Shown here: piece after piece, positions 798-59,618 of the stretch | How positions within the stretch are numbered: position 1 is the first letter of the stretch | Layout of the letters: every line of letters starts with the position of its first letter | Origin: a bacterium | Lineage (GTDB): Bacteria > Myxococcota_A > Bradymonadia > UBA7976 > UBA1532 | Reading direction: 5' to 3' | DNA: 64,000 nt | NCBI GenBank assembly: GCA_041389985.1 | Contig: JAWKQS010000014.1 | Location: forward strand, 14,553-78,552 | Notes under the pieces: generated by a model | What the model was told of the DNA's origin: nothing | The model's input: only the letters and a program-made list of their open reading frames with translations | Databases searched by the model: none | Program-made: the position numbers and the translations under genes

Positions 798-1634
798 ATG
801 CCACGCACCACGCACCTCCTCCTCCTCGCCGCGTTCATGACCGCCTGCGTCGCCGACCCGGACGCCGAAGACCGCGACGCCGGCGCCGCCGATGCGGCGG
901 CCGACCGGGGCCCCGCCCCCGCCTGCGACCTGCCCCGCACGGCCGTGACCACCCTCGAGGCCCTGCCGCAGGCCCCCGCGCCGGCCTGTGACGCCTACCA
1001 CCCGCCCCGGACCGTCGGCGTCCGCGTCGACGGCCCCGACGGCCAGCGCATCGCCGTCGAGGACGAAGAGCTCGGCGACCAGACCTTCCACTTCGGCGGC
1101 ACCGTCGCCGCCTCCCTGCCCGGCGGCGGCTTCACCCTGCGCACGGGTGCCGGCGACTGGACCTTCACCCTCACCGTGCCCGAAGGGCTGCCCGTCCCCC
1201 ACTTCCCGGTCGGCATGGAGCTCAGCGTCCAGGTCCAGAGCGCCTGGGCCTGGGGCTTCAGCAACCTGGGCATCCTCATCTCGGGCGAGCACCCGCTCTT
1301 CGCCGCCGACACCGGCCTCACCGGCCTCACCCCTCGCGGCCTCACCGTCGACGTCGACCGCGACGAGATGTGCCTCGTCCACGGAGAGGGCTACGACGGC
1401 ATCGAGCAGTACCGCCTCGCCGCCACCCACGCCGGCGGCACCACCCGCGTCCTCCCGGGCGGCTGGGCGGTGCTGCCCATGGCCGACGGCTACCCGCTCG
1501 CCTTCACCAACCTGATGAGCCACCAGCCCCCGTGGACGGATGACTACTGGAACTACGCCTGGGTGGCCTACGCCATCCAGTGCGGCCCGCCCGCCATGGA
1601 GCCCGGCGCCCCCGACGCGGGCGTGGTGCCGTGA
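798..1634 (+). CDS. Hypothetical lipoprotein
   Basis: ATG at 798 preceded by AGGAG. N-terminus MPRTTHLLLLAAFMTAC is a signal peptide with a lipobox Cys. Upstream in-frame part of ORF 321..1634 is antisense to the neighbouring minus-strand gene. Confidence 0.55.
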   Translation: MPRTTHLLLLAAFMTACVADPDAEDRDAGAADAAADRGPAPACDLPRTAVTTLEALPQAPAPACDAYHPPRTVGVRVDGPDGQRIAVEDEELGDQTFHFGGTVAASLPGGGFTLRTGAGDWTFTLTVPEGLPVPHFPVGMELSVQVQSAWAWGFSNLGILISGEHPLFAADTGLTGLTPRGLTVDVDRDEMCLVHGEGYDGIEQYRLAATHAGGTTRVLPGGWAVLPMADGYPLAFTNLMSHQPPWTDDYWNYAWVAYAIQCGPPAMEPGAPDAGVVP

Positions 1635-1850
1635 GCTGAGCGACGCCACCGCGTCCAGCTCGGCGCGAGAGTCAACGCTGCCCAGCGCGTCGAGCCCGGC
1701 ACGTCGCGGCCGGCTCGCCAGCCCCCAAGCCGCCGTCGGGCGAGTGCACCAACGATCGTCCACCACACACGGATTGCATGGCCGATTGCTCCCAGATGAC
1801 GCAGGATGCGCCGCGGACCAGCCCGGGGCGCGGCCCGGCAGGAGAACAGA

Positions 1851-3693
1851 TGCGACGCATTGGCGGGTGGTGGGTGGTGGCCCTCCTGGCCCTCGGTGGC
1901 TGTGACGACGCGGGCACGACGGAGACGCCGGCAGACTGCCGCAACGCGGCGCTGGCGTGCGCGCCGGGGTTCGAGTGCGCGGCCGTCGGAGGGGGGTTCG
2001 AGTGCGTCCGGGCGGCCGACGTCGACGCCGACGGGGCGGACGCCCAGGCCCGCGACGCGGTGGCGGACGCGCAGCTCGAGCGAGACGCGGCGGTGGTCGA
2101 GCCCGACGCGGGTCCTTCGGCCCGACCGGGCGGGTCCTGCGGGCCCGATCTGCCCTGCCTCGACGGCGAGTGCCGCGATGACCTGCCCGGCGGCTTCTGC
2201 CGCGTCCCGTGCCAGGACGACGCCGCCTGCGGTCCCGACGCGGTCTGCTCGACCGGGGGGTCGTGCCGCACCCGCTGTGACGACCTGGGCTGCCGCCGCG
2301 GCTGGGTGTGCGACGGCCGCGAGGAGCCCGCCGTCTGCCGCCCCGACTGCAACGAAATCGCCTGTGGAAACGAGGACATCTGCAACCCCGACTCGGGCCT
2401 GTGCGAGCCCGCGCCGGTGTGCGTCCCCGAGACGTGCAACGAGAAGGACGATGACTGCGACGGCATGCTGGACGAGGGCGTGCAGAACGCCTGCGGCGGC
2501 TGCGGCGACGTCCCCGAGGAGACCTGCAACGGCCGCGATGATGACTGCGATGGCGCCGTGGACGAGGCCGTCCTGAATGCCTGCGGGGCCTGTGGCGACG
2601 TGCCCGAGGAGGCCTGCAACGACGTGGACGATGACTGCGACGGCGAGGTGGACGAGGGGCTGCGCAACGCCTGCGGGGACTGCGGACCGGCCCCGCCGAG
2701 CTCTGCAATGACATCGACGACGACTGCGACGGCACCGTGGACGAGGGCGCCCGCAACGCCTGCGGGGCGTGCGGCCCGCCGGCCGTCGAGGCCTGCGACG
2801 GCGTGGACGCCGACTGCGATGGCGCCGTGGACGAGGACGCCCCCTGCGCGGCCGGGCAGATCTGCCTCGAAGGGCGGTGCCGCCAGCCGCGCAGCGAGGC
2901 CGGCGGGCCGTGCCGGGTCGACGACGACTGCGCAGCCGGCGTGTGCAACGACGAGCCCATCTTCCCCGGTGGGTGGTGCCAGGTCGACTGCGCCCGTGAC
3001 GTCGACTGCGGCGCCGCCGCGGCCTGCCTGGACGTCGGCGTGCTGGCCTGTCTGGAGCGCTGCGACGCGGCCGCCGACTGCCGCCCGGGCTGGGTCTGCT
3101 ACGCCGACGACGGCATCTGCTTCCCGTCGTGCCAGAACATCGGCTGCGCCGCGGGCTACCTCTGTGGGGCCGACGGCTTCTGTGCCATCCCCGTCCTGAA
3201 CATCACGGTGACGCAGGTCTTCCTCAGCCCGGGCGTGAGTGATGGCAGCGCCTGGGATGGCTTCGGCAACGTGGGCCAGGCCGACTTCGCGGCCGCCGCC
3301 CAGGCCGCGCTGTCCGGTAACCTGGCGAGCCTCACCGCGGTGGCGGCCCAGTTCGCCAACGCCGCCTACGCCCCGCCCGATCCGTTCGGCACCGCCACGC
3401 TGCTCCAGGGCCCCATCAGCCGCTCCCTCAACCTGGCCGAGATCCAGGACACCTACTCGCCGCAGTGGGCTGGCATCTCGTGGCGCGTCGCCCTGGACCC
3501 CGCCGCCGACACCCGGGTGCGCATCAGCCTGACGGACGCGGACCTGGCCAACGACGACCCCATCGGCACCGTCGAGGTGGGCCAGGCGGACCTCATCGCG
3601 GCCCAGGCCGCGGGCCGCGTCTTCCCCGTCGCCACGGTGAACCAGGGCAACGGCCACATCATCGCCGTGGCCATCAGCGTCCGCGCCGAGTAG
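1851..3693 (+). CDS. Cys-rich secreted lipoprotein with tandem CxxDDDCDGxxDE...NACGxCG repeats (MopE-like putative metal-binding motif); apparent -1 frameshift near 2690-2700
   Basis: Signal/lipobox MRRIGGWWVVALLALGGC. At least six copies of the CNxxDDDCDGxVDEGxxNACGxCG repeat. The repeat continues in a second frame (ORF 2737..3693) after a single-base loss in a ccccgcc run. Confidence 0.6.
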
Positions 3694-3888
3694 CCCTGCT
3701 GGCCTGATCTCGCTCGGCCGCTCCAGTTCGCTTCATCCACCGCCCACGTTGTCGAACTCCACCCCCCAGATGTTCGGGGGGCACATGGCCCACCTCCGGC
3801 CGCCATGCTCTCGACGTCGCGACGCCCACGACACGGTGTGGTGGGCGTCCCAGGCGGGAGCGAGGCTCCCGGAAGGAGGCGTTCTGCC

Positions 3889-6800
3889 ATGCCACACGTC
3901 CACCACCATCCACTCGCCCGCTGGCTGTGCGGCCTCATCGCGCTGGCCGGCTGCGCCCCCACGACGTCGACCCCGGAGCCCGACACGCCGCCGGCCGTGG
4001 CGCAGCGCTCCGATCCCCTGAGCGACGAGTGCGTCGCGCCCGGGTGCGGCAACGGCGCCCTGGAGGCGTACGAGGCCTGCGATGATGGCAACACCAAGGG
4101 CGGCGACGGCTGCTCGGCCACCTGCCTGCGGGAGCAGGCCGAGCCGAAGCCGGCGGGCGTCATCCGCCTGCAGAACCGCACCCTCTCGCCCGCCGAGGCC
4201 ATCGACCCCGCCCTCGTCGCGGCGGCCGCCGAGGCGCCGCAGCCCTACCTGCACGCCATGGCGGTCTTCGACGAGCGCCCCGACTCCGAGGCCCCGGCCG
4301 CGTGGGCCGAGGCCGGCATCGAGCTGGCGGGCTACATCCACGCCGAGGTCTACATCGTCAAGCTGCCCCTCACCGAGACGGCGGACGGCGAGCCCATGGA
4401 CGAGGCGGGCTTCGAGGCGCTGCGGGTGCGCCTGGGGGCGAAGCACCTGGTGGCCTTCGCGCCGGGCGACCGCGCCGACGAGGCCACCCAGGCCGGCGAT
4501 CTGCCCGACTGGGCGGTGGATCCGGCCACGGGCCTGGCCCATGTGCTGGTGCTGGTCTACGGCGGCGTGCCCGCCCACGACCGCGACGCCCTCATCGAGG
4601 GGATCCAGGCCGGCGACGAGCCGGCGGTCCTGGCCTCCGAGGCGCTGGTGGCGGTGACGACGCCCGTCGAGGCGCTGCCGACCCTGCTGGCCAGCCCGCT
4701 GGTGGAGTGGATCGAGCCCGGCCCGCACCCCGCCGACGAGCTGATGGACGCCGTGCGCGCCAACCTGGGCGTGACCAACGCGGACCGCCCGAGCCTGTGC
4801 CTGACGGGCGCCGGCGTGCGCCTGGCCACGGTCGCCGAGACCGCGCAGGCCAACCACCCGGACTTCTACACCTACGACGTCAACGGGGTGCAGGGCGCCT
4901 CCCGCCTGCTCGCCGGTGCCGCCGGCGGCGGGACCCATGGCACCCATGTCATCGGCATCATGGCGGGCAACGGCTGGCTGAGCCAGGCGCTGGGCGGCCG
5001 GCCGTTCCAGTGGCGCGGCGTGGCCCCGGAGGCCCAGGTGACGGACGCGGAGTGGTACTCCGCCAGCCCCACCGGCGTGCGGCCCCACGCCGCCGGCAGC
5101 TCGACCGTCCCCATCGGCTTCGACGGCTTCTACGACGCCGGGCTCATGGACATGGACGCCCGCATCCGGGGCGATGCCCACCTGGGACACTTCTACACCC
5201 AGCTCTGGGCGGCCGGGAACAACGGCGGCGGCTACGCGGGGGGGGCCACCGGCCAGGGCTCCGGCTCCGGCACCCGGGGCAACTACGCCGTCGTCGCCAC
5301 CGGCAAGAACACCATCAGCGTGGCCAACATCTTCGCCGAGGACTTCCGCTGGGCCTCCAGCTCCATGGGCCCCAGCCACGACGGCCGCATCAAGCCCGAG
5401 GTGGCCGCCCCCGGCTGCCGCCTGCGCCACCCCTACCAGGACGTGGCCTTCGAGGTGGAGTACCTGCGCGTCGTGCGCCCCGCGCCGGGCGACGCCGACC
5501 TGAACTACGACTTCGAGGGGCCCACCATGGATGGCTGGTACCCCTGGCAGATGTGGCGCGAGAAGGCCACCGGCCCCACCAAGGTGGCGTCGCCGGGGGG
5601 CCACGCCGCGCGCTTCATGCTCACCGGGCCGCGGCCCCTGGTGCAGTGGAGCAAGTATGAGGTGGCCGCCGGCGAGCGGACCATCCATGACTACTTCAAC
5701 GGCACCTACGGCGGCCTGAGCAAGGCCAACGACGAGATCCACCTGCGCTACCGCTACGCCGGCGGCGAGCCGCTCTTCGAGGGCGGCCACATCCTCCTCT
5801 GGTGGTTCTGGAACCTGACCGACGCCAACCCCAACAACGACCAGGTGCGCTACCTGGAGGTGCCCATCCGGGCCGACGGGGCCTGGGACACCATCGTGCT
5901 GCCCGCCAGCGCCCTGGGCGACTGGGCCGGCCACCCCATCGACACGCTGCGCCTCTCGCCCGGCGCCCCCAACCCCGGCGCCGTCATCGCGGCCGGCGAG
6001 ATCAGCCAGTATGCCGGCATGTGCGGCACCTCCATGGCCTCCCCCGCCGCCACCGGCGTCGTCGGCCTGCTGCTCGAGGAGCTGGCCACCACCCGCGGCG
6101 TGGATCTGGACGATCCCCTGTCGCCGTCGCCCTTCGCCTGGGGCAGCCCCGGCACCGGCCGCCCCCTGCCCTCGACCTTCCGCGCCCTGCTCGTCCACAG
6201 CGCCCGGGATCTGGCCCGCGTCGCCCGCATCGGCGACACCAACGGCGCCGACACCGGCGAGCCGCCCTCCTACCACAAGGGTCCCGACTACACGATGGGC
6301 TACGGCGCCGTGGACGCCGAGGAGGCCGTGCGCGTCCTCCAGGAGAACGCCGCCGGCAACCTGCCCATCTACGAGCGCCAGGCCGCCCCGGCCACCACCC
6401 AGGTCTTCAACCTCACGGTGCCCCCCAACCAGCGGGCCCCGCTCAAGGTCACCCTGGCCTGGAGCGACCCCGGCATCTCGCCGACCGGCCTCCAGCACGA
6501 GAAGAAGCTGGTCAACGACCTGGACCTGGAGCTGCGCGCCCCGTCGGGGGCCGTCCACCGGCCCTGGTCCATCGATCTGCCTTACATTCCCTACAGTTGC
6601 CCGACGTGTCTCCCCCCGCAGGCGGTCGGCGACGAGCCCGTCACCACCGCCGACTTCGTACCGGCGCGCAACGACCTGAAGAACAGCCGCGACAACCTCG
6701 AGATGGTCTACGTCGAGACGCCGGAGGCTGGCGTCTGGCAGGTGCGCGTCTCGGTGCCTCCGCTGCCGACCGGCCCCCAGAAGTACTCCATCATCCTGGG

Positions 6801-7979
6801 CCAGCCGGCCCCCCCGGCCGACGAGCTGGCCGGCGGCAAGGTGGCGTTCGTCTCCGATCGCGGCGGCATCCCCGCCGTCTACATCTCGCAGAACGACGGC
6901 AACCCGCCCGTGGCCCTGCCCAGCATGGGCGCCCCCGCCCGCGATCCCGAGTGGTCCCCCGACGGCCGCTACGTGGCCTACGTGGCCTGGGAGACCGTCT
7001 CCGGCGCCGACCAGCTCATCGTCTGGGACACCGTCGGCACCAACCACCACCTCATCACGACGCCCTTCCCGGGCTACCGCTACCTGAGCCACCCGTCATG
7101 GGCCCCCGACGGCAGCGAGATCTTCATCGGCTACCACGACGACCCGCAGGAGAAGGCCATCGGTGCCGTCGCCTTCCCCAGCGCCACCACCCGCACCCTG
7201 TACGCCACGCCGCCCGGCGGCTTCTGGAGCCCCGACGCCCCGGTCTACGGCGGCGTCGACCCCACCGGCCGCGCGCATGTGCTCGTCTACGCCACCGGGG
7301 CCTGCGTCGAGAACGCCCTCTTCCGCATCCCCGTGGAGGGCGGCGCGCTGGATCGCGTCTGGGCCGACGGCTTCCCCAGCACCCGCGCCCTCTTCCCCTC
7401 CGCCACCCGGGACGGCCGGCGCATCCTCTTCACCAGCGAGGACTACCTGGTGGGCACCCCGGGCTTCGACGACTACGAGGTGGTGGAGGTCGGCGCCCTC
7501 GAGGGCGTGACCACCCGCCACACCAGCGACGCCGGGCCCCAGATCGCCGCCTACGCCATCGGCGGCGTCGGCGAGTGGGCCGCCGAGACCCGCGCGCCCG
7601 GCGGCCGCCGCGACATCATCCTGCAGCACAACGGCGTGCGGCAGGCCCTCGCCATCGCCGACCCCGGCAACGCCTACGACGACTACCACCCGAGCTGGTG
7701 GAAGGCCGATCCCAGCGTGCCCGTCCCCCCCCCCAACGCCCCCGCCATTTCCTGCCCCGCCACCGTCATGTGGCCGCCGCAGGTGGCCCCCTGCGGCCCC
7801 CGCACCCCGCCCCCGCCACCGCCACCAGCGTCTGCGGCGGCCCGGTGCAGATCGACGTCGACCCGCCCACCGTCTCGGGCGGCGGCTCCCACACCGTCAC
7901 CTACACCGCCACCGACCGCCTGGGCCACCAGGCGAGCTGCACGACGGTCGTCTCGTGGCAGTGCATCTCCAGCAACTGA
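3889..7979 (+). CDS. Subtilisin-like (S8) serine peptidase with N-terminal myxobacterial Cys-rich repeat, TolB/PD40-like beta-propeller repeats and C-terminal HYR-like domain; apparent frameshift near 7790-7815
   Basis: RBS GGAAGGAGG then ATG 3889. Lipoprotein signal LARWLCGLIALAGC. Motif CGNGALEAYEACDDGNTKGGDGCSATC. S8 His motif HGTHVIGIMAG and Ser motif GTSMASPAATGV. PD40-like DPEWSPDGRYVAY and SHPSWAPDGSEIF. C-terminus ...PTATSVCGG...TVTYTATDRLGHQASCTTVVSW continues in the ORF 5802..7979 frame after a poly-C tract. The frame-1 read-through to 8481 crosses non-coding 43-bp repeats. Confidence 0.7.
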
Positions 7980-8010
7980 TGGTGGCGTGAGCCGTACCGG
8001 CGCCCTCGAC

Positions 8011-8464
8011 GGCGTCCGGGGCACCCCCTGCCCACCTCGAACCGCCCTCGACCGCGTCCGGGGCACCCCCATGCCCACCTCGAACCGCCCTCGACCGCGT
8101 CCGGGGCACCCCCTGCCCACCTCGAACCGCCCTCGACCGCGTCCGGGGCACCCCCCTGCCCACCTCGAACCGCCCTCGACCGCGGCCGGGGCACCCCCCT
8201 GCCCACCTCGAACCGCCCTCGACCGCGTCCGGGGCCCTCCGATCCTGCCTCGGAGTCGCCCCGACCGGCCCCCGGGGCCCTCCGATCCTGCCTTCGAGTC
8301 GCCCCGACCGGCCCCCGGGGCCCTCCGATCCTGCCTTCGAGTCGCCCCGACCGGCCCCCGGGGCCGTCCGATCCTGCCTCCGAGTCGCCCCGACCGGCCC
8401 CCGGGGCCCTCCGATCCTGCCTTCGAGTCGCCCCGACCGGCCCCCGGGGCCCTCCCCGCCCCCC
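8011..8464. repeat. Two adjacent direct tandem-repeat arrays: unit A about 42-43 bp x5.6 (8011-8249) and unit B 43 bp x5 (8250-8464)
   Basis: Unit A is cgccctcgaccgcgtccggggcaccccctgcccacctcgaac. Unit B is cgatcctgcc(t/c)(t/c)(c/g)gagtcgccccgaccggcccccggggccctc. Copies are near-identical, head-to-tail with no spacers. The unit length is not a multiple of 3. Confidence 0.85.
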
Positions 8465-8534
8465 TCGAAGCGCCCGCTTGAATCCCGCCGCGCCCCGTGG
8501 CCCAATGCCGCAGGGCGATCGTCGGGAGCATCGG

Positions 8535-10751
8535 GTGTACTACTGCCGCCGCTGCGAGATGGGCCGCGCCCTGGCGGCCACCCCATGCCGCCACGGCCCG
8601 ACGCCCCTGGTCAGCCTGGCGGGCTTCACCGTCGGCAGCTTCATCGGCCAGGGCGCCCACGGCCGCGTCTTCGGCTGCACCGCCGACGGCCGTGAGTGGG
8701 CCGTCAAGATCATCGACCTGCGCACCGCCGTCAGCGGCGCCGACATCCGCCGCCTCGTCGACCGCGAGAAGGCCGCCCTCGTGCGCCTGCGCCACCGCCA
8801 CGTGATCGCCCTGCACCAGACCGGCGAGCACGACGAGCTGCTGTTCCTGGTGGTCGAGCGCCTGGAGGAGACGCTGCGCCAGCGCATGCAGCAGCCCATC
8901 GCCCTGCCCCGCGCCCTGGAGTACGCCGCCTGCCTGGCCGACGCCCTGGCCTACGTCCACGACGCCGGGTCGCTGCACCGGGACGTGAAGCCCGAGAACA
9001 TCGGCTTTCGCCGCGACGACTCCCTGGCCCTCTTCGACTTCGGCCTGGCCGCCGACCGCACCACCGGCCGCGCCGCCCACACCACCGGCGTCGTCGGCAC
9101 CTGGCCGTACGCGGCCCCCGAGCAGATCCTGACCCGGGAGAGCGACCAGGCGACGGACGTCTACAGCCTGGGCGCCGTGCTCTTCGAGCTCTTCACGGGC
9201 GGCTCCCACCGCCCCGTCCCGGATCAGCTGAACCCCGTCGCGTGGCTCGCCCAGCCCATCCCCGCCTGGCCGACCGAGCGGGCGCTGCCGGTCGGGATCA
9301 CCCCCCTCGCCGACCTCATCCACGCCTGCCTCGCCCGCGAACCCGGCACCCGCCCGGCCATGTGGCAGGTGCAGGACGCCCTGGGCGAGCTGGCCGACCG
9401 GGCCCACCTGGACTTCGCGCGCCTGGCCGGCGAGCACCAGCGGCTGACGCGGGAGGTGGAGGCCGCCCGCGCAGAAGCCGCTGATCTGACTGCGAAATCC
9501 AAGCAGGCCAGGACGACCGCCCAGCAGGCCGAGGCCCGACGCGCCACCGCCGAGGCCGAGGGCAAGCGCCTCGCCGAAGAGCTCGACCGCCTGCGCGCCG
9601 AGGCCGCCCGGGCCGAGGACGAGGCCCAGCGCGCCGCCGCCAGCCGCAGGCGAGACGCCCAGGAAGCCGAGACGCGGGCCGCGAAGGCCGAAGCCCGGCG
9701 CGAGGCCGCCGAGGCGAAGCGCGCGACCGCCGAGGCCAGCGTCACGGCGCTCCAGGCCGAGCGCGACCGGCTCACGAAGGAGCTGGAGCGCTTGCGGACC
9801 GGGGAGACGTCGTCGACGGAGCCATATCCGGAGGCGATGAAGCACGCCCGTGAGGCCCTCGGGACGAAGCGGGCGCAGGCCCCGCCGCCGACCGCCGGCC
9901 AGCTCATCGCACCAGCGACGGCGACCCGACCCGCGCTGCGGTGGGTTCCGTCCGGCACCTTCACCATGGGCAGTCCCCCCGACGAACCGGGCCGAGGCGA
10001 CGACGAGGTGAGGCACCCGGTGACGCTGTCCTCCCCGCTCCTGGTGATGGAGACGCCCATCACCCAGGGCCAGTGGGCAGCGCTGCTGGGCACGCGCCCC
10101 TCGTACTTCCGCCAGGGCGGCGACACCTGCCCGGTGGAGCGGGTGAGCTGGTACGAGGCGGTGGCGTTCGCGAACGCGCTGTCGGCGGCGGAGGGCCTGA
10201 CGCCAGCGTACCGGGTGGGGCCAGCGTCGGGCACGCTGGGCGGGGGGTTGGCAGCGGGCCAGCCATGGGCCGCCGGCGACTTCCAGTACGCTTCGGTAGA
10301 GCCGGTGCCGGGGGCGAGCGGCTACCGCCTGCCGACGGAGGCGGAGTGGGAGGGCTGGCCCGCGCAGGGACGCCGGGGGCCATCTACGCGGGAACGCTGG
10401 AGATTCTGGGCGAGCGCAACGCCTGCCCTGGACCCCATCGCCTGGTATGGGGGCAACAGCGCCAAGGCGACGCACCCGGTGGGGCAGAAGGCGGCCAACC
10501 CGTGGGGCCTGCACGACGTGCTCGGCAACGTCTACGAGTGGTGCTGGGACGGGTATGCCCCCTACCCGACGGGCATGCAGCAAGACCCACACGGCCCACC
10601 CACCGGCGTCCACCGGGTTGTCCGTGGCGGGTCGTGGATCACGAACGCGCGGTGGGTGCGGTCGGCGAACCGCAACCACTGCGGCCCGGTCAGGCGGTAC
10701 GCGGTCATCGGGTTCCGCCTCGTTCGCCCCCCCAGCTCGGTCGGACCTTGA
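8535..10751 (+). CDS. DGR target 1: Ser/Thr protein kinase, coiled-coil, FGE-sulfatase (C-type lectin fold) domain with VR at the C-terminus
   Basis: Hanks kinase motifs IGQGAHGRVF, HRDVKPEN, DFG and APE. Long Ala/Glu/Arg coiled coil. FGE-sulfatase signatures RLPTEAEWE, THPVGQKAANPWGLHDVLGNVYEWCWD and RVVRGGSW. Start chosen at GTG 8535 (GGGAG RBS 6 nt upstream; VYYCRRC zinc-ribbon N-terminus like the paralogs). Alternative in-frame starts are ATG 8505 and TTG 8478. Confidence 0.8.
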   Translation: MYYCRRCEMGRALAATPCRHGPTPLVSLAGFTVGSFIGQGAHGRVFGCTADGREWAVKIIDLRTAVSGADIRRLVDREKAALVRLRHRHVIALHQTGEHDELLFLVVERLEETLRQRMQQPIALPRALEYAACLADALAYVHDAGSLHRDVKPENIGFRRDDSLALFDFGLAADRTTGRAAHTTGVVGTWPYAAPEQILTRESDQATDVYSLGAVLFELFTGGSHRPVPDQLNPVAWLAQPIPAWPTERALPVGITPLADLIHACLAREPGTRPAMWQVQDALGELADRAHLDFARLAGEHQRLTREVEAARAEAADLTAKSKQARTTAQQAEARRATAEAEGKRLAEELDRLRAEAARAEDEAQRAAASRRRDAQEAETRAAKAEARREAAEAKRATAEASVTALQAERDRLTKELERLRTGETSSTEPYPEAMKHAREALGTKRAQAPPPTAGQLIAPATATRPALRWVPSGTFTMGSPPDEPGRGDDEVRHPVTLSSPLLVMETPITQGQWAALLGTRPSYFRQGGDTCPVERVSWYEAVAFANALSAAEGLTPAYRVGPASGTLGGGLAAGQPWAAGDFQYASVEPVPGASGYRLPTEAEWEGWPAQGRRGPSTRERWRFWASATPALDPIAWYGGNSAKATHPVGQKAANPWGLHDVLGNVYEWCWDGYAPYPTGMQQDPHGPPTGVHRVVRGGSWITNARWVRSANRNHCGPVRRYAVIGFRLVRPPSSVGP
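10603..10736 (+). repeat. DGR variable repeat VR1 (last about 45 codons of target 1)
   Basis: 134 nt identical to the TR except at 9 positions, all of which are adenines in the TR (A to T or G). Confidence 0.85.
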
Positions 10752-10815
10752 GTCTAGAGTCTAGAAAGTGTGTTGTGCGCGGCAGATCTGCCGTGGCGCG
10801 GCACTCCGCGGCAGA
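10752..10815 (+). promoter_or_regulatory. Conserved post-VR element (palindromes TCTAGAgTCTAGA and CGGCAGATCTGCCG); candidate cruciform/hairpin next to the IMH region
   Basis: Starts right after the target-1 stop. A near-identical copy (2 mismatches) follows the target-2 stop in the same relative orientation (13186-13250). Further GGCAGATCTGCC-type palindromes at 10831-10844, 10857-10876 (perfect 20-nt palindrome) and 10893-10904. Confidence 0.6.
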
Positions 10816-10933
10816 CGCCGGCACCTTCTTGGCAGGATCTTGCCGACTGGGTGCCGTCATCGGCAGATCTGCCGATGGCGGCAAGACCGCCAACGCCGAT
10901 CTGCCGCATTCGGCAATCGCTCAGGGGGTCCCC

Positions 10934-11467
10934 ATGGAGCTTGACCTGCGCCAGGCGGCGGCGCTCATCGGCCGGCGCGAGCGGACGCTGCGCGACCAGC
11001 TCGTCCGGGGCGCCATTCGGGGCCGGAAGGTGGGTGGTCGCTGGGTGGTGCGCGAGGAAGACCTGCCCATCGACGAGGCGCGGCGGCAGACGCTGCGGGG
11101 CCGCGCGGACGCAGTGCGCGCGAGCGTCGAGACGGCCATCGCACGGCGCCAGCCAGCCATGACCATCGAAGACGTCGAGGTCTTCCGCCTGGGGCGCGAA
11201 GCGCTCCACCGCCTCGACGCCGGGCACGGCGAGATCGCGAGCGCGATCCGGGAGGCCTTGCTGCACATGGGCGTCGCCCACCATGAGTACGACGCGGGCC
11301 GCAAGCAGGCCGAGTGGGGGCGAGCCCGGATTCAGCTCGCCCGCGCCGTGCTCCTGCGCCTGCTCCCCGCCGCCACCGACTCCACTGCCGAGGTCGCGGA
11401 CGCCCTGGAGCGCGACGTCATCCCCCGCCTGGGTGGCCTGCTCCGCCGCACGGCGGAACGCCCATGA
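10934..11467 (+). CDS. Excisionase-family helix-turn-helix DNA-binding protein (DGR-associated)
   Basis: ATG 10934 after AGGGGG. N-terminus LRQAAALIGRRERTLRDQLVRGAIRGRKVGGRWVVREEDL matches the excisionase/MerR-like HTH pattern (...GRRWRI.REDL). The stop overlaps the next start (ATGA at 11464-11467). Confidence 0.6.
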   Translation: MELDLRQAAALIGRRERTLRDQLVRGAIRGRKVGGRWVVREEDLPIDEARRQTLRGRADAVRASVETAIARRQPAMTIEDVEVFRLGREALHRLDAGHGEIASAIREALLHMGVAHHEYDAGRKQAEWGRARIQLARAVLLRLLPAATDSTAEVADALERDVIPRLGGLLRRTAERP

Positions 11468-11800
11468 AGCAGGCACCGCTGGCCGTGTTCGCCCACGATC
11501 TGGCGGTGTGGCTGCATGGGCAGGCACAGCGCGCCTCGGTCGCCCACCAGGCGACGGGGCTGCCGGCGGCCGCCGCGGCGCAGAGTCGGACGCTCCTCAT
11601 CCAGGTGAGTCTGGCGCTCACGTTCCGCGAGGGCCGAGGCGAACACCAGCGCGGGGCGGACGAGGCCCTCGCGAGCCTACGGGTCTTGCTGCGGCTGGGA
11701 GAGGCCATCGGCTGGCTCACCCCGGCGGGCCTGCTGCACGCCGCCGCCCTCATGGATCCGGCGGGCCGCATCCTGGGCGGCTGGCGCCGGGGGCACCAGC
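11464..11800 (+). CDS. avd: Avd-like accessory variability determinant (3' end uncertain; ORF formally runs to 11991)
   Basis: Helical protein of about 110 aa. Its C-terminal segment ...LRVLLRLGEAIGWLTPAGLLHAAALMDPAGRILGGWRRG resembles the Bordetella bAvd C-terminus (...VGRILGSWIARVNRKG) of the four-helix-bundle family. Translationally coupled to the HTH gene. The tail beyond about 11800 is low-complexity and overlaps the convergent RT gene. Confidence 0.5.
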
Positions 11801-12732
11801 AGTCCCAGGTGGGCGGCGAGGCTGCGCTCGACGTCGTTGGGGGCCCCTCCCAGGGCGCTGGTGACACGCTGCCCGAGCCGGCGCCAGGCCCGCGGCAGGG
11901 GCTGCGCGCCCGCCGTCGACACCGCGTGGCCCAGCCCATGGAGCACTTCGCCGCGGTGGATGACGGGCGCGTCGGGCCGCTTGAGCCGTAGGCCACGCTC
12001 GGCCTCCAGCCAGACTCCCAGGTCGGTCCGGATCCGCCGGAGTTGCCGACGATCGTCGGAAAACATAAACAGATCATCCACATAGCGTACGTAGCCAGGG
12101 ACGCGAAGGGTGCGCTTGACCCAGGCATCGAGGCCCGAAAGGTAGACGTGGGTGGCCAGAATCTGACTGGTCAGCGCGCCGATCGGCAGGCCTCGACCCG
12201 GTGGTGGCCAGTCGGCCGGCAGGCCCATGAAGGCCCGGACGTCGGTACGGCGGTACAGGGTCGTGCCCTGGTCGAGGATGCGGCCCACCAGCGCCAGCAC
12301 GGGCGGTTCGCGCACGAAGGCGGCGAGCAACGCATGCAGACGCTCCACCTGCACGCTCGGGAAGAAGGCGCGCACGTCCAGATGCAGGGCAAAGCGATGG
12401 CGGCGCTTCAGCCTGAGCAGCGCCAGCACGGCCCGGTGGGTCCCGAAGCCGGGACGACAGGCGTGGTTCTCGGGCATCAGCCGGCGCTCGATGGCGGGCC
12501 AGAGGGCCGTCATCAAGGCCGTGTGCACGACGCGGTCCTCGATGGGCGAGCGGGCGATGACGCGGGGCTTGGGATCCCGGATGAGGAGAGGCTCGCAGGG
12601 GGCGGGCTGCCAGGTCTCAGCAGCGAGGGCGGTCGCCAGCCGGAGGGCGACCTCCTCCCGGCGAAAGAAGAGCCAGGCGCCCTCAGGGCGGTGCCGCTTG
12701 CCACGCAGCGTCCGGTCGACCGCCGCCAGCAA
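11677..12732 (-). CDS. DGR reverse transcriptase
   Basis: RT motifs: N-terminus LLAAVDRTLRGKRHRPE...LLIRDPKPRVIARSPIEDRVVHTAL. FFPSV. DGR-specific motif 4 IGALTSQ (about 12163-12183). YVDD box GYVRYVDDLFMFSDD (about 12073-12084). C-terminal ...ERSLAAHLGL thumb-like segment. The start is uncertain (TTG 12732 proposed; no in-frame ATG; ORF frame open up to 13227 through the TR). Confidence 0.8.
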   Translation of the reverse strand: MLAAVDRTLRGKRHRPEGAWLFFRREEVALRLATALAAETWQPAPCEPLLIRDPKPRVIARSPIEDRVVHTALMTALWPAIERRLMPENHACRPGFGTHRAVLALLRLKRRHRFALHLDVRAFFPSVQVERLHALLAAFVREPPVLALVGRILDQGTTLYRRTDVRAFMGLPADWPPPGRGLPIGALTSQILATHVYLSGLDAWVKRTLRVPGYVRYVDDLFMFSDDRRQLRRIRTDLGVWLEAERGLRLKRPDAPVIHRGEVLHGLGHAVSTAGAQPLPRAWRRLGQRVTSALGGAPNDVERSLAAHLGLLVPPAPAAQDAARRIHEGGGVQQARRGEPADGLSQPQQDP

Positions 12733-12887
12733 TGCCGCAGGATCCGTGATGCGCGGGAAGAGGCCGCCGACGCTACGCAGAGGTGCACCCGCGGGCGTTC
12801 GACCGGACGTGCCGTCTACCAGGACGCGGGTGCGAGGTCGGCCGGGGCCGACGGCTGGACGCCTGCTCGGGGCCACGCAGGCCGCGG

Positions 12888-13021
12888 GCTGGGGGGGCGA
12901 ACGAGGCGGAACCCGATGTTCGCGTTCCGCCTGACCGGGTCGTTGTGGTTGCGGTTCGCCGACCGCACCCTCCGCGCGTTCGTGTTCCACGACCCGCCAC
13001 GGACAACCCGGTGGTCGCCGG
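12888..13021 (-). repeat. DGR template repeat (TR)
   Basis: 134 nt with 23 adenines, including 7 AAC codons in the VR reading frame (WNTNARRVRSANRNHNDPVRRNANIGF). Matches VR1 and VR2 except at adenines. Lies immediately 5' of the RT on the same strand. Confidence 0.85.
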
Positions 13022-13185
13022 ACGGCATCCACCCTGCCCGCATGATGAGGACGGCTGACCCGGCGGCGCAAGCCCCGCGGTGCCGGGTTCGGCAGCTCCG
13101 GGTGCCGCTGGCGGCAAGAAGTGATCTGAATCTGCCGCACACGGCACCGAAACGGCAGAAACCTGCCGCGGAGTGCCGAATCTTG

Positions 13186-13250
13186 CCGCGGAGTGCCGCG
13201 CCACGGCAGATCTGCCGCCCACAACACACTTTCTAGAATCTAGACTCAAG
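13186..13250 (-). promoter_or_regulatory. Second copy of the conserved post-VR palindromic element (downstream of VR2)
   Basis: The reverse complement matches 10752-10815 with 2 mismatches. An additional CGGCAG-AAAC-CTGCCG hairpin lies at 13153-13168. Confidence 0.6.
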
Positions 13251-15959
13251 GCTCGACCAGGCTGGGGGGGCGAACGAGGCGGAACCCGATGACCGCGAAC
13301 CGCCAGACCGGGTCGTTGAGGACCCGGTCCGCCGACCGCACCCTCCGCGCGTCCGTGTCCCACGACCCGCCACGGACAACCCGGTGGTCGCCGGTGGGTG
13401 GGCCCGATGGGTCCGGGTGGACGCCCGGCGGGTAGGGGGCGTACCAGTCCCAGCACCACTCGTAGACGTTGCCGAGGACGTCGCGCAGGCCCCACGGGTT
13501 GGCCGCCTTCTGCCCCACCGGGTGCGTCCCCGAGAACTTCGCCGGCCGCTGCATCTCCGGCCAGCCCGACGAATCGTAGCCCTTCTCCACCCCGCTGTTG
13601 CCCCCGTACCACACGATGGGGAGTCCAGGGGCTGGCGCGTTGTTCTTGCCCAGAATCTCCAGTGTTCCCGCGTAGATGGCCTCCCGACGTCCCCGCACGG
13701 GCCAGCCACCCCACTCCGCCTCCGTCGGCAGGCGATAGCCGCTCGCCCCCGGCACGGGCTCTACCGAAGCGTACCGGAAGTCGCCGTCGGCCCATGCCTT
13801 GTCCGCTGGCAGACCCCCTGCCGAGCGTGCCCGACGCCTGCCCTACCCGGTGGCTGCGTCAGCCCTCCGCCTTCGACAACGCGCTCGCGAACGCCACCGC
13901 CTCGTACCAGCGCTCACCTGCCCACTGGGCAGGGTGTCGCCACACGCCCCGAAGTACGAGGGCTTCGCCTCAGCACCGCAGACCACTGGCCCTGCGACCT
14001 CCGTCTCCATCACCCACAGCGCCTGAGTCACCGTCACCTCATGCGGCACTCCTCATCGTCGTCGCGGCCCGGCCTCGCCCGCGCGCCGGCATGGCAGTGG
14101 CCCTTCTTGCCGTCCGGGCTGCCCATGCAGAACTCCCAGCGGGGACGGCGGAGTGCGGGGCGCTGGGGGTGGCGCTGGCGACCAGGGCACCCGGTGCGGG
14201 AGTGGAAGCGGTGGGGCGTCAACTGCCTGGGATGGTGGTGCCGCGTCCACGGCCAATGGCGGCCGGGCCGCATCAACGGCGAGGGATGGTGGTGCCGCGT
14301 CCATGGCCACCGGCGGCCGGGCCGCATCAACGGCGAGGGATGGTGCTGCGTCCACGGGTTCGCGCTGCTCTTCGCCGCCGGCCGAGGCGCCCACGACGAG
14401 CCCAATGCCGATTCCACGAGCAGGGCGCCTCCGACGCTCGCGCCGAGCATGACCCGGCGGCGGCGGGCGTTATGGCTGCGCTGTGCTTCCAGGCGCTCGG
14501 CGTCGGCCAGGGCCTGCCTGGCCGACGCGAGACGCTGGGCCTCCGCGCTCGCCTCGGCGCGCGCGCTTCGCACGGCGTCGCGGGCGATCTCGCTGGTGGC
14601 GCGCAGAGCGGTCGCCTCCCGACCCGCCTCGCTGATGCGCTCCTGCAGGGTCTCCAGCTCCACCGCCAGGCGGGCGGTCGCGACCGCCCGCCGTGTCGCC
14701 AGGTCTCGCTCCAGGGCCTCCACGGCAGCGGCCCGCTCAGCAGCCAGGCGGTCCCTCTGGGCCCGCTCCTCCACCTTCGCATGCTTCAGCTGTCGGTCCG
14801 CCGACGCCCGCGCCTCCGCCAAGGCGGCCTCCGCGGCCGCACGCTGGCTGGCCAGCTCGCGGGCCAGAGCATCCGTGGCAGCGGCGCGCTCCTCCGCCAG
14901 CTTCTTCCGCTGCGCGGTCTGTTCGGTCCTGGCCTGCCGGGCGATGCGCTCGGCCGCGGCTCGCGCCTCGGCGACCGACGCCTGGGCCTCTGCGAGCGCC
15001 GCCTGCTCGGTAGCCAGCCCAATCTCGACCTGGACGAAGCGGGCGTGGGCCTCGCCCAGGCCGGTGCCCAGGCGGTCGGCCAGTTCCGCCACGACGTCCA
15101 GCACTGCCCAGGTGTCTCGCGGGCGAGCGCCTGCCTCGACCGCGAGGCACTGGAGGATGAGCCGGTCCAGCGCCGCAGGACGGGCGGGGTCGGGCGGGAG
15201 CGGTGGCACCGGCTGGCGGGCGTATGCCTCGTAACCCCCTGAAAACCCTTGGGGTCGGTGGCTCCTGCCGGCGATGAGCTCGTAGAGGATGGCCCCGAGG
15301 GCATAGCGGTCCGACCAGGGACCGTCGCGGCCAAAGACCTTCGGAACGAGCTGTTCCGGCGCAGCGTAGGGCCGACTGAACCCCTTGACGCCCACCGTGG
15401 TGGCGCTGTCGCCGCGGCGCACGCCGGCCAGGCCGAAGTCGAAGACGTAGAGGTGGTCGCGGTCGTCCAGGCCCAGGTTCTCGGGCTTCAGATCGCGGTG
15501 GATGACGCCGACGTCGTGCATGTAGGCCAGCGCGTCGGCGAGCTGGGCGGCCAGCTGAATGGCCCGAGGCAGGGTCAGCAGGCGTCCCGGAGCCGCTCGC
15601 AGGACGTCCTCAAGCGTGCGCGGGACATACTCGGTAATGAGGCAGAGCCGACCCGCGACCTCTTCGGCATGGATCAGGGCGATCACATGGGCATGGGCCA
15701 GCTGCGTCAACGTCGCGCGCTCGCGGCTGAACAGCTCGTGGGCGTCGTCAGGTCGATCGAAGCCGTTGGGGTCGATGACCTTGATCGCCCGGCGGAAGTC
15801 GCCCTGGAAGCACTTCGACACCCGGGAGGCGCGCGACTTCTGGATGGACGCCCCAGCCTTCCAGCTGTCATCCAGGCCCGGGATGAGCGCCGTCGGGTGG
15901 TGGCCCTCGGTGCACCGGTCGCCGTCGGTGGGGATGAGGCAGAGCGGGCAGAGGTACAT
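13246..15959 (-). CDS. DGR target 2: Ser/Thr protein kinase, coiled-coil, FGE-sulfatase (CLec) domain; reading frame interrupted at least 3 times (likely sequencing errors)
   Basis: ATG 15959 (MYLCPLC zinc-ribbon N-terminus). Kinase motifs HRDLKPEN, DFG and APE. Coiled coil. FGE domain split over ORFs 14034..16010, 13843..14049 and 13246..13755 (HEVTVTQALWVMETEV..., RLPTEAEWGGW..., THPVGQKAANPWGLRDVLGNVYEWCWD, RVVRGGSW), ending in VR2. Confidence 0.7.
13261..13394 (-). repeat. DGR variable repeat VR2 (3' end of target 2)
   Basis: 134 nt. It differs from the TR at 11 TR-adenine positions plus one C-to-G. Confidence 0.8.
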
Positions 15960-16149
15960 CAGCCGTCCCACCCCAGCTCGAGCTCCAGGCCGCCACCTTC
16001 CAGCAGGCACGGCCCGCGGGCGGTCTGGCCGCGGGGGAGGCGGCGGCCGTCGACGCGCAGGGTGCCGGCGGCGTCCTGGCGGCCGACGGTGAGGGCGTCG
16101 CCGGTGACGTCCACGAAGAAGTGGACGCGGGCCATGCGGTGGGTGGCGC

Positions 16150-16600
16150 CGAGCAGGGGGTGGAAGCCAGCGATCGGGTCGGCGGTGTGGCGGCGGCCGA
16201 AGTGATGGCGACCAGGGGGAGCGTCAGCGTGCCGAGCCAGGCAGGCTCGTCCTCGATGGGGCGGGCGGCGTGGGCCGAGCGCCAGCGGAGGGTGGCGGCG
16301 GTCGCGGCGCGCGGGGCGCTGGGACCGGCGGGGGGGTGCTCCAGCACGGCCAGCAGCTCATCCAGGAGCGGGATCGGCGGCGTGATGACGAGGAGCCGCG
16401 CGTTGCGCAGCCAGGCCGCGAGCGCGAAGACGTCGCTGTACAACTCGTTGAGATCGCTGATGATCTGGTCACCGGGCCGGTCCTTGACGGGCAGGGCGTT
16501 GATGCGGCGCTGGTCGAGGCCGACGAGCAGCATGCGACGACGCTGGGGCTCGCAGAGATCCGTCGCGACGACGGCCGTTTGCAACGCCTGGAGCTGCTCC
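16150..16600 (-). CDS. Hypothetical protein (boundaries uncertain)
   Basis: Protein-like segment KVITREQLQALQTAVVATDL...LLVITPPIPLLDELLAVLEHP within ORF 15868..16827. Candidate GTG start about 16600. The tail is low-complexity. Confidence 0.3.
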
Positions 16601-16743
16601 CTGGTGATCACCTTGCCCTCGTGCCCACCGGTCCCGAGCGAAGATCGCCCGATTGGCGTGCGGGGGCAAGGGGGCGGCGCTGCACTTCCTCGCCTGCCCA
16701 CGAAGGTTGCGGTAGGCTCACATTCCCCGGAGGAGCGCGCGCC

Positions 16744-50510: not shown

Positions 50511-50558
50511 CCAGAGAGAAAACGAGGAGTTCCCGGCGCCGCAGGGGCGCGGCGCCGG
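50511..50558 (-). terminator. Putative intrinsic terminator for the minus-strand ECF sigma gene
   Basis: Perfect 10-bp GC stem ccggcgccgc / gcggcgccgg (50533-50542 and 50549-50558) with a 6-nt loop, followed on the minus strand by ttttctctct after 12 nt. It sits between convergent genes. Confidence 0.4.
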
Positions 50559-50564
50559 CGCGGC

Positions 50565-51440
50565 TCAGGCGGCCGCGCGCACGGAGAGCAGCCAGCCCGC
50601 CTCGGGGGCGCTGACCTCGAGGCCCGTCCCGATCTCGGCCGACCAGGTGAGCATCGAGAGGCGCAGATCGCGGTCGCCCTGCAGCTCGCCGAAGCCCACA
50701 TGCCCCTCCAGGCCGGGGATCTGGCGCAGCAGCGGCACGAGGGCCCGGTCGCGGCGCAGCCGGGCCCGGCGGACCACGTTGCCCACGTCGGTCGCCTTCA
50801 GCTCCAGCCGCTCGGCCACCGCGGGTAGCCCAGCCCCTCGATCTCCACCAGCACCAGCGCCGCGCGCTCGGTCCGGGGCAGGCCGTTCACGGCTTCCATC
50901 ACGGCGTCGCGCAGGGCCAGGGCCAGCACGTCGCGGTGGGCGCGCAGCAGGCGCCGCTCGGGATCGCCCCCGTCCGTCGCCCGCGGCCACGGCTCGTCGC
51001 CCGCACCCGCGGGCGGTCGTCCATCGTGCCCCGGTACTCGGGCCGGCGACGGCGCAGGAAGTCGATGGTGCGGTGATCAGCGATGGAGAGGAGCAGGGCG
51101 TAGCGGATGCTGTGCTCCTCGCGATCGGCGAGGCGGATGAGGCGCTGGATGGCCATGGCGGTCGTCGCCACCAGATCCGCCACCTCCTCCGACTCGGGGT
51201 CCTGCCCGGACGAGGCCAGCCGCCGACGGATGCGGCCCGCCAGCCGGCGCTGGAGGACGTCAAAGACGAACGCGGTGAGGGCGCCGTGCGGTAGCCCAGA
51301 TCCAGGCAGCCGTTGAGGACGCGCTCGAAGCTGGCGATGGTGTCCACCTCGGGGCAGGCGGCGGTGGCGTCCAGCAGCGCGAGGACGGCGCGGCGGCGCT
51401 CAAGGCGAGCGTCATCGGCGTCGGCCTGTTGCACGCGGCT
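50565..51440 (-). CDS. ECF-type RNA polymerase sigma factor (reading frame interrupted at least twice)
   Basis: Region-2-like ADLVATTAMAIQRLIRLADREEHSIRYALLLSIADHRTIDFLRRRR. Region-4-like ...LVLVEIEGLGYPAVAERLELKATDVGNVVRRARLRRD. The pieces lie in three frames. Confidence 0.45.
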   Translation of the reverse strand, partial: SRVQQADADDARLERRRAVLALLDATAACPEVDTIASFERVLNGCLDLGYRTAPSPRSSLTSSSAGWRAASVGGWPRPGRTPSRRRWRIWWRRPPWPSSASSASPIARSTASATPCSSPSLITAPSTSCAVAGPSTGARWTTARGCGRRAVAAGDGRGRSRAAPAARPPRRAGPGPARRRDGSRERPAPDRARGAGAGGDRGAGLPAVAERLELKATDVGNVVRRARLRRDRALVPLLRQIPGLEGHVGFGELQGDRDLRLSMLTWSAEIGTGLEVSAPEAGWLLSVRAAA

Positions 51441-51544
51441 GCGCACGGCGACCCGGAAGCGGCGGAGCGGACCCGCCACGCCCAGGGGCGGGCTGACGTG
51501 GGTGGCGGCGGCGGCGTCGAGGGTGAACGGGGCGAGCGGCGCGT

Positions 51545-59535: not shown

Positions 59536-59618
59536 GGGCTCCTCCTGTGTGCCGCGTACCGGTAGTGTTGACGGGCGGCCGCCCCTTGTCCAGCGTCCGC
59601 CAGCGGGAGGTGCGCTGC

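Follow-up and report, generated by a model that had tools for sequence, protein, structure and literature searches.

We analyzed a 64,000-nucleotide stretch of bacterial DNA (the window; contig JAWKQS010000014.1, positions 14,553 to 78,552), focusing on its 8.5-16 kb region. This region is a genuine, complete diversity-generating retroelement (DGR). It consists of a template repeat (TR), a reverse transcriptase (RT), two accessory open reading frames (ORFs) and two target genes, T1 and T2, which face each other around this core and carry the variable repeats VR1 and VR2 at their 3' ends (Table 1). Both targets follow the same layout: a zinc-ribbon-like N-terminus, a Hanks-type Ser/Thr kinase, a coiled coil and a C-type-lectin-fold (CLec) domain of the formylglycine-generating enzyme (FGE) type. 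The original prediction, made from the letters of the window, had proposed two such convergent targets on a single TR, and all of these elements were found where it had placed them. The GC content of the window is ~74%, and its HemF is 96% identical to that of the Myxococcales metagenome-assembled genome (MAG) GCA_020633435.1, in agreement with the myxobacterial type of host that had been assumed. The host is an uncultured Myxococcales bacterium and the element is chromosomal. We consider it likely that this DGR diversifies the kinase-CLec protein T1, with T2 as a second, disrupted target.

Table 1. Features of the DGR region in window coordinates
Feature	Position	Strand	Basis or remark
T1: Zn-ribbon-like CxxC...CxH, Hanks Ser/Thr kinase, coiled coil, FGE-type CLec	8535-10751	plus	open ORF, 738 aa
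T1 kinase domain	8628-9371	plus	G-loop, catalytic Lys, HRDVKPEN, DFG, APE intact
T1 helical, coiled-coil-like linker	9390-9825	plus	Ala/Arg/Glu-rich
T1 FGE-sulfatase / C-type-lectin-fold domain	9942-10727	plus	Pfam, AF2, Foldseek
T1 out-of-frame patch, 24 codons, inside the FGE domain	10353-10424	plus	alignment with homologues
VR1	10603-10739	plus	93% identical to TR
Palindrome CGGCAGATCTGCCG, 14 nt, perfect, contains GATC	10780-10793, 10861-10874, 13204-13217	none	
HTH_17-domain accessory ORF, 177 aa	10934-11467	plus	Pfam HTH_17 E 4e-5, below cut-off
Avd-like accessory gene	11464-11991	plus	conserved part ~11464-11840, usual stop missing
DGR reverse transcriptase	11677-12825	minus	RVT_1 E 1.3e-11
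TR, 137 nt	12885-13021	minus	60 nt upstream of RT ORF
VR2	13258-13394	minus	TR-matching repeat at T2 end
T2, whole extent as fusion	15959-13246	minus	layout as T1, not a single ORF
T2 C-terminal FGE fragment, open, 169 codons	13246-13755	minus	Pfam FGE-sulfatase E 2e-23
T2 FGE N-terminal half, disrupted	13680-14126	minus	frameshift-aware alignment; DNA alignment with T1
T2 N-terminal ORF: Zn-ribbon-like motif, kinase, coiled coil, hydrophobic segment, linker, first 26 FGE codons	14034-15959	minus	
EAD5 (effector-associated domain 5) gene	15965-16611	minus	Pfam EAD5 26.4 bits (cut-off 27)

Mismatches between the TR and the VRs are concentrated at TR adenines: 9 out of 10 in VR1 and 11 out of 13 in VR2 (binomial P = 9e-7 and 1.7e-7, respectively, computed against the TR adenine content of 16.8%). 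The adenines of the TR occupy the first (13) and second (11) codon positions and never the third, and seven of its codons are AAC. The TR is 237 nt away from VR2 and 2146 nt from VR1, close to the 240 nt and about 2.2 kb estimated previously. VR1 spans residues 690-735 of the 738 in T1, that is, the terminal RVVRGGSW...GFRLVRPP segment in which the variable region had been expected. TR, VR1 and VR2 have a common 3' end, GGGTTCCGCCTCGTTCGCCCCCCCAGC, beyond which they diverge. The palindrome CGGCAGATCTGCCG occurs exactly 29 nt past the stop codons of both T1 and T2, inside a post-stop region conserved at 89%, and was not found past the TR; it is a candidate post-VR hairpin. No further TR-like, FGE or RT copies, or remote targets, are present in the window.

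The RT carries the motifs IGALTSQ (12163-12183) and YVDD (12073-12084). Its conserved part ends near 11790 and is followed by a 37-residue tail that overlaps the Avd-like ORF. A scan of metagenomes with the RT sequence alone returned no relative, and relatives were sought again with an RT alignment. In pairwise comparisons, the RT is 31-49% identical to the RTs of loci that also bear a TR and VRs (L081, 49%; L015, L033 and L051). Both accessory ORFs have counterparts in locus L081. The HTH_17 ORF is 36% identical to a syntenic L081 gene with Pfam HTH_17 on record, and the Avd-like ORF, which scores 25.6 bits with Pfam bAvd (cut-off 40) and 27 bits with NCBIfam DivGenRetAVD (cut-off 80), is also 36% identical to a syntenic L081 gene, in this case one bearing PF22296 (bAvd).

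L081 (72% GC) has a closely similar layout: a kinase-FGE target, HTH_17, bAvd, TR and RT, faced by another kinase-FGE target, with a third VR in addition, which gives two or perhaps three targets. All (100%) of its TR mismatches are at adenines, and both of its convergent kinase-FGE targets are intact, one with a transmembrane segment and the other without. The cassette of target, HTH, Avd, TR, RT and opposing target recurs in five more loci (L051, L092, L095, L104 and L117), where the targets are STAND-NTPase-like or membrane-anchored FGE proteins; the HTH_17 ORF is syntenic in four of them as well (L051, L092, L104 and L117). Beyond these, L015, from a Myxococcota MAG, has two FGE targets that converge on each other, and L033, from a Cloacimonadaceae MAG, includes a kinase-FGE protein as a DGR target. 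A DGR with twin kinase-fused targets had been expected to be unusual in a myxobacterial-type genome. Given the cassettes in L081, L015 and L033, as well as kinase-CLec targets published for cyanobacteria, Thiohalocapsa and MAG surveys, such a DGR is less unusual than expected. As a separate observation, the catalytic loops of both L081 kinase-FGE proteins (860-3034 and 5520-7223) read HRDIHPGN, with His in place of Lys; judging by this motif, some members of the family may be pseudokinases.

A second, nearly identical assembly (the sister assembly; L001, GCA_041390005.1) could be compared with window positions 1-20359, over which the two are 99.15% identical and are separated by 81 substitutions and 71 gap openings. 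VR1 differs between them at 16 positions, namely, 13 TR-adenine sites, at which the differences alter 11 residues of T1, and three indels in C runs. In contrast, VR2 is identical at every adenine site. T1 thus looks actively diversified and T2 does not. The comparison suggests that T1 is being rewritten while T2 is left alone, and the DGR is probably active.

T1, whose sequence is that of NCBI MEZ4472095.1 on a 167-kb MAG contig, matches both domain families that had been proposed for it, Pkinase (E 3.7e-38) and FGE-sulfatase (E 6.9e-39); in T2, the FGE-sulfatase match falls in the C-terminal fragment. The motifs of T1 include CRRC...PCRH at the N-terminus, GQGAHGRV, a VAIK-type Lys, HRDVKPEN, DFG and APE. 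Between the kinase and the FGE domain, residues 286-430 contain 40 Ala, 24 Arg and 23 Glu but a single Pro in 145 residues, and give weak matches to SMC coils. Since T1 is without a hydrophobic segment (Kyte-Doolittle maximum 1.19), it should be cytoplasmic. One stretch of its FGE domain is out of frame, reading EWE followed by GWPAQGRRGPSTRERWRFWASATP where the family consensus is EWEGLARAGTPGAIYAGTLEILGERNACP. The consensus EWEYAARAGT...P.LD.IAWY.GNS can be read at the same place in another frame of the window. The patch stems from a 1-nt deletion at 10352 and an indel before ALDPIAWYGG; the latter is common to both assemblies. The former is not: the sister assembly reads one T more at 10352, and with it the first junction is mended. 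The patch is most likely an assembly error.

To model the CLec domain of T1, we repaired its frame and supplied AlphaFold2 (AF2) with an alignment of 90 homologues; a single-sequence run gave a pLDDT of 37. The resulting model has a pLDDT of 95.8 and a pTM of 0.93. Its best match among solved structures is TvpA (2y3c; Foldseek E 7e-24, TM 0.78, 33% identity), which is also detected by sequence (phmmer E 1.8e-41), and VR1 is aligned to the C-terminal RGGSW...GFRL segment of TvpA. The model therefore bears out the proposal that the FGE domain serves as a variable scaffold with the CLec fold. The catalytic (copper-binding) Cys pair of FGE was not found in T1 upon alignment with the S. coelicolor and T. 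curvata enzymes: T1 reads I-T-N-A-R-W at the GGS[YF]LCHxSYC site, and the segment with the second Cys is deleted. By these residues, the T1 domain appears to share only the fold with FGE, as TvpA does, and to be non-enzymatic.

T2 is more complicated. Its kinase retains CPLC...CTEGH, the catalytic Lys, HRDLKPEN, DFG and APE. The glycine-rich loop is absent, with IQKSRASRV at its site, so that the claim of intact kinase motifs, fully valid for T1, holds for T2 except for this loop. Degeneration of the loop was considered as a sign of decay and rejected: an intact orthologous kinase from a sister species (see below) has a likewise atypical loop, VDKGGTSRV, and the T2 loop is therefore a lineage trait. 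Downstream of the kinase, T2 has RRRR and a hydrophobic segment (14397-14453, Kyte-Doolittle 1.45). Both targets had been taken as cytoplasmic; this remains for T1, while T2 is proposed from its hydrophobic segment to have been originally membrane-anchored or periplasm-facing. The T2 linker contains 27-nt (9-aa) tandem repeats at 14203-14310, and the frame supported by the GC content of third codon positions (GC3) yields an unusual W/H/R/P-rich sequence, HHPSPLMRPGRxWPWTR. The two targets had also been described as paralogs. Their last ~360 nt and ~75 nt past the stop codon are indeed 89% identical at the DNA level, but the kinase halves are only ~36-38% identical, and the T2 kinase is closer to a non-DGR kinase of the sister species (74.7% identity over the first 307 residues). 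T1 and T2 are thus better described as mosaics than as simple paralogs.

The FGE domain of T2 is broken as assembled, with frame changes that include +2 and -2 nt events. Their density (~8 in ~410 nt, or ~20 per kb) can be compared with none in the 924-nt kinase region of T2. Moreover, identity between the two assemblies is 100% over the 920 nt that hold the frameshift cluster (13511-14429), in contrast to 18 indels/kb in the flanks. Based on these comparisons, T2 has likely decayed in earnest. The competing explanation is that the interruptions are sequencing or assembly errors and that both targets are intact and equally active. It draws on the quality of the window assembly, which is indel-noisy throughout. 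The genes for imidazolonepropionase-like HutI (59547-60837) and a sigma-factor-like protein (50460-51549) are each spread over four frames, and the MopE-like gene, g401 and g1275 (~2692, ~20355 and ~26835, respectively), as well as the EAD5 gene, are frameshifted relative to the sister species. Frameshifts in housekeeping genes (HutI, the sigma-like gene, MopE) indicate that the indels of the window are largely assembly noise. Some of the conserved-gene frameshifts (MopE, EAD5) are even common to both assemblies. We initially read the presence of the T2 frameshifts in both assemblies as proof that they are real, and downgraded this argument for that reason. Both convergent targets of L081 being intact also fits the error explanation. 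On the other hand, the worst of the other window genes show 2-3 frame changes per kb, far below the T2 cluster; the +2/-2 changes, the in-frame TGA, the perfect agreement of the two assemblies across the cluster and the frozen VR2 next to a changed VR1 likewise speak against errors. We therefore regard two intact, equally active targets as the less likely outcome, although in such a noisy assembly the pseudogene status of T2 is likely rather than proven. Homopolymer context was tried as a marker of errors and proved uninformative, as the frameshifts of HutI and the sigma-like gene also occur outside long runs.

The sister assembly is noisier still, with many additional 1-nt deletions that disrupt genes whole in the window, such as kin371. 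Its TR (L001 14330-14510) displays VR-like A-to-G changes and indels. A cluster of A-to-T changes, including one within a GATC site, makes IGALTSQ of its RT (L001 13596-13706) read FGALSSQ. These oddities may reflect mis-polishing from VR reads, methylation-related miscalls or real decay in that strain.

The EAD5 gene adjoins T2 on its upstream side. Both assemblies show a frameshift in this gene near 16216-16267, and a 222-aa orthologue from the sister species (L082 7210-7878) aligns to it in two frames. Its C-terminal half (VHFFVDVTGDALTVGRQDAAGTLRVDGRRLPRG) has no family match. EAD domains were not detected by Pfam on either T1 or T2, and neither a vWA-MoxR nor a STAND core was seen at 7-18 kb of the window. 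The sister species (L082/L085; GCA_020633435.1, JACKDP010000001.1) has, within the same PALP-HemF flank, genes for a secreted stand-alone FGE of 323 aa with a signal peptide, an EAD5 protein of 222 aa and a kinase of 565 aa, the last being the relative of the T2 kinase mentioned above. No RT is present within 10 kb of this locus. The EAD5-then-kinase gene order is kept, and the T2 FGE domain and the secreted FGE have both the PQRPALR...FCMGSPDG start and the GYDSSGW..MQRPA insertion, the latter being missing from T1. Between the window and the sister species, identity is 68-75% for EAD5 and the kinase, far below the 96-97% of PALP, HemF and kin371, which marks the former two as a fast-evolving module. 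The locus is a variable island between conserved flanks. Where the window has an S8 peptidase, 43-nt repeats and the DGR, the sister species has TetR and adh_short genes. The repeats in question, at 8001-8475 and directly upstream of the T1 start, comprise ~11 units in tandem, each GC-rich and 42-43 nt long (CGCCCTCGACCGCGTCCGGGGCACCCCCTGCCCACCTCGAAC). Their period is no multiple of 3 and the GC3 model classes the region as non-coding; a long ORF (3805-8481) crosses it spuriously. They could be promoter-proximal repeats or MITE-like (miniature inverted-repeat transposable element) sequences.

The sister locus raises the question of whether T2 was ever a fusion. It could instead have been a kinase gene followed by a separate gene for a secreted FGE, with 'RRRR + VMLGASVGGALLV...' being the signal peptide. 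The stand-alone, signal peptide-bearing FGE of the sister species with its PQRPALR...FCMGSPDG start is just such a protein, and NCBI's Prokaryotic Genome Annotation Pipeline (PGAP) calls the T2 C-terminus as a protein of its own (P0174, 188 aa). We nevertheless find this unlikely. The reading frame of the kinase ORF stays open across the hydrophobic segment and the linker and into the FGE domain for 26 codons, with a GC3 of ~88-90% backing this frame; we see no obvious start codon followed by a charged n-region; and homologues (the first L081 target, P0004, P0007, P0010 and P0014) are true kinase-transmembrane-FGE fusions.

If T2 is accepted as a membrane-anchored fusion, a more far-reaching scenario can be drawn, in which a single TR would serve two matched receptor kinases on opposite sides of the membrane: T1 would be soluble in the cytoplasm, and T2 would be membrane-anchored with its CLec domain in the periplasm. 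The DGR would have been grafted onto a pre-existing module, the fast-evolving, non-diversified set of secreted FGE, EAD5 and kinase genes that persists in the sister species. The L081 targets are split into a soluble and a transmembrane one in the same manner. As a whole we rate this scenario as rather improbable. Were it true, the locus would be a snapshot of an innate sensor kinase of a social bacterium becoming a somatically diversifying 'antigen-receptor kinase'.

Returning to a DGR that diversifies T1, with T2 disrupted, several features of the region weigh against this interpretation. As assembled, 24 codons in the core of the T1 CLec domain are out of frame, and the T2 FGE domain at ~14090-13680 has ~8 frame changes and an in-frame TGA. 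The Avd, HTH_17 and EAD5 matches are all under curated cut-offs, and a single EAD5 copy was found, compared with the homotypic EAD pairs of described systems. The convergent Avd-like and RT ORFs share ~315 nt (11677-11991), both overrunning the ends of their homologues. Furthermore, relative to L081, L051, L092, L104 and L117, the TR-RT block is inverted with respect to HTH-Avd, so co-expression of the two is not guaranteed. Finally, the evidence for activity comes from two noisy MAG consensus sequences, of which the sister assembly is error-prone. The inverted block suggests an inversion junction at 11677-11991. A simple inversion between TR and VR2 was considered as the cause of the flipped block and rejected, since no repeat is left between Avd and RT.

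Taken to the extreme, such features would describe a fossil, that is, a decaying relic in which the TR/VR adenine pattern attests to past activity only. The ~8 frameshifts and the stop of T2, seen in both assemblies, would suit a fossil, as would the T1 patch, the Avd and RT ORFs overlapping without normal stops, the inversion of TR-RT away from Avd and the damaged look of the TR and RT in the sister assembly. Against this, 13 differences at TR-adenine sites of VR1 between strains that are otherwise 99.15% identical would require mutagenic homing after their split. The RT ORF and its motifs are intact in the window, and housekeeping genes are frameshifted as well, so the indels are largely assembly noise. 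A fossil is accordingly improbable. The VR1 differences also bear on a combination that was to count against the original prediction, a T2 pseudogene together with an invariant VR1: T2 has probably decayed, yet VR1 differs between the two assemblies.

What T1 might do is indicated by its relatives. Kinase-FGE homologues mostly have a clear transmembrane helix between the domains (Kyte-Doolittle 1.55-2.7). The closest homologue of the FGE domain is a TIR-FGE protein (60% identity) encoded beside a TIR-kinase-FGE-SAVED protein and a CD-NTase. The metagenomic locus in which it lies, L086 (1214-10317), encodes a further protein, TIR-kinase-FGE; the SAVED fusion is 1222 aa long and the CD-NTase is DncV-like. 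This is a context resembling CBASS (cyclic oligonucleotide-based antiphage signaling system), with no RT listed. PADLOC and NCBIfam scans produced generic kinase and RT similarity only, nothing above curated cut-offs, which is not evidence for membership in a defense system. The EAD5 neighbor, the fast-evolving EAD5-kinase module, the TIR/SAVED/CD-NTase relatives and the STAND-NTPase targets of sibling cassettes all point to a sensor of the conflict type, none of them decisively. The DGR might instead serve regulatory tuning, with the CLec domain picking kinase substrates or an endogenous signal, and diversification acting on the wiring of signaling rather than on immune sensing. Myxobacteria have very large Ser/Thr kinase repertoires, which we counted in favor of tuning, along with the cytoplasmic location and apparently active kinase of T1. 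A similar role has been proposed for cyanobacterial Ser/Thr kinase-CLec proteins (PMC7517822). The EAD5 gene as the immediate neighbor in a fast-evolving module, the fusion of the nearest FGE relatives to TIR and SAVED beside a CD-NTase, and the STAND-NTPase siblings speak for sensing instead, and tuning seems to us possible but the weaker of the two options.

The DGR anatomy, the adenine-specific pattern, the fold and the VR1 variation between strains are shown by the data, whereas homing to both strands, a mechanism of kinase activation and an immune or sensing role are inferred. We propose the following mechanism. The minus-strand TR would be transcribed together with the adjoining RT, which would produce adenine-mutagenized cDNA, probably with the assistance of the Avd-like and HTH_17 proteins encoded on the opposite strand. 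The cDNA would then replace the last ~40 codons (the VR) of target genes that have the matching GC-rich 3' end of the repeat; homing would thus reach both strands. The live target would be T1, a soluble Hanks Ser/Thr kinase with a long helical linker and a non-enzymatic variable CLec domain. T2, of equal design, would be the second target, which underwent mutagenesis in the past but, disrupted as assembled, is no longer rewritten. The variable CLec domain may act as a ligand or 'antigen' sensor whose occupancy controls the kinase, probably via coiled-coil-mediated dimerization. This would place T1 among DGR-diversified putative sensors of conflict- or immune-type systems in multicellular bacteria.

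DGR-diversified kinase-CLec sensors are hereby extended to Myxococcota, the textbook social bacteria, in line with the published link to multicellular lifestyle. Sequence quality limits the conclusions, and the locus is of interest mostly for the group its host belongs to, for the two strains that can be compared and for a sister locus free of the DGR. The near-identical MAG pair amounts to a natural experiment in which VR1 was rewritten and VR2 stayed frozen, and the sister species provides the ancestral, DGR-free form of the T2 side (secreted FGE, EAD5 and kinase). Together they make the recruitment of hypermutation to a signaling kinase testable.

Among known systems, the BPP-1 DGR of Bordetella phage (mtd/avd/TR/brt) shares with the window element adenine-specific TR-to-VR mutagenesis, an AAC-rich TR, an IGxxxSQ RT and a VR at the C-terminus of a CLec domain; a putative Avd-type accessory protein and a palindrome, as a candidate hairpin, beyond the GC-rich end of the repeat may be added to these. 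In contrast, the window element is chromosomal, has two targets on opposite strands, an Avd-like gene convergent to TR-RT and an extra HTH_17 gene, and its target is a signaling kinase instead of a tail fiber. TvpA of Treponema denticola (PDB 2Y3C) has the same FGE-subtype CLec domain with the VR in the C-terminal RGGSW...GFRL segment and no FGE catalytic cysteines, but is a stand-alone lipoprotein-type surface protein with neither kinase nor coiled coil. The domain order of T1 and T2 is that of receptor-type bacterial Ser/Thr kinases whose FGE-sulfatase domain is extracytoplasmic. PGAP names this architecture 'bifunctional serine/threonine-protein kinase/formylglycine-generating enzyme family protein', and it is found widely, in Planctomycetota, Ignavibacteria, Myxococcota and Cyanobacteria. 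Such receptors mostly have a transmembrane helix and no DGR, whereas in T1 the helix is missing, either through loss or from the outset, and the tip of its FGE domain is DGR-templated.

Further parallels come from DGR targets with signaling domains. Thiohalocapsa has a kinase-domain DGR target, drawn among 'putative antigen sensors' tied to multicellular bacteria (Doré et al. 2024, PMC10907252), and the EADs and FGS domains of conflict systems were described by Kaur et al. 2020 (PMC7159879). As in the Thiohalocapsa PB-PSB1-type sensors, a C-terminal FGE-type CLec domain with the VR is attached to signaling domains (STAND NTPase, kinase, TIR), EAD adaptor genes are near, degenerate loci stand beside complete ones, the hosts are social or multicellular, and sibling cassettes in the RT clade of the window target STAND-NTPase-FGE proteins. 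The window differs in having a kinase and coiled coil as the N-terminal module and one sub-threshold EAD5 match; paired homotypic EADs on core and effector, the criterion of Kaur et al. (PMC7159879), were not found at the locus. Pkn1/PknD-annotated DGR targets with CLec domains also appear in a MAG survey (PMC11661182). Myxobacteria are absent from the main text of Doré et al. (PMC10907252). A full-text literature search found no paper that pairs DGR with 'Myxococcota', and the nine that pair it with 'myxobacteria' are mostly reviews or work on retrons and other RTs.

The cyanobacterial proteins (Vallota-Eastman et al. 2020, PMC7517822) are close in design; among the multidomain DGR targets of cyanobacteria, Ser/Thr-kinase-CLec proteins are the most frequent. 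They too combine a Hanks-type kinase with a C-terminal VR-bearing CLec domain, are mostly predicted to be cytosolic, and include several paralogous targets per TR; a role in gating the kinase or directing it has been proposed for the variable domain. Among cyanobacterial homologues, the best one, P0004 from an Acaryochloris plasmid, reaches only 27% identity; it contains a transmembrane segment, and no RT lies within 5 kb of it. Here, by comparison, the element belongs to a 74% GC Myxococcales MAG; its targets converge around an HTH_17/Avd/RT core, have a long coiled coil and a zinc-ribbon-like N-terminus, and one of them is degenerate. The kind of system is therefore already described, and what is new is the bacterial group in which it is found, Myxococcota.

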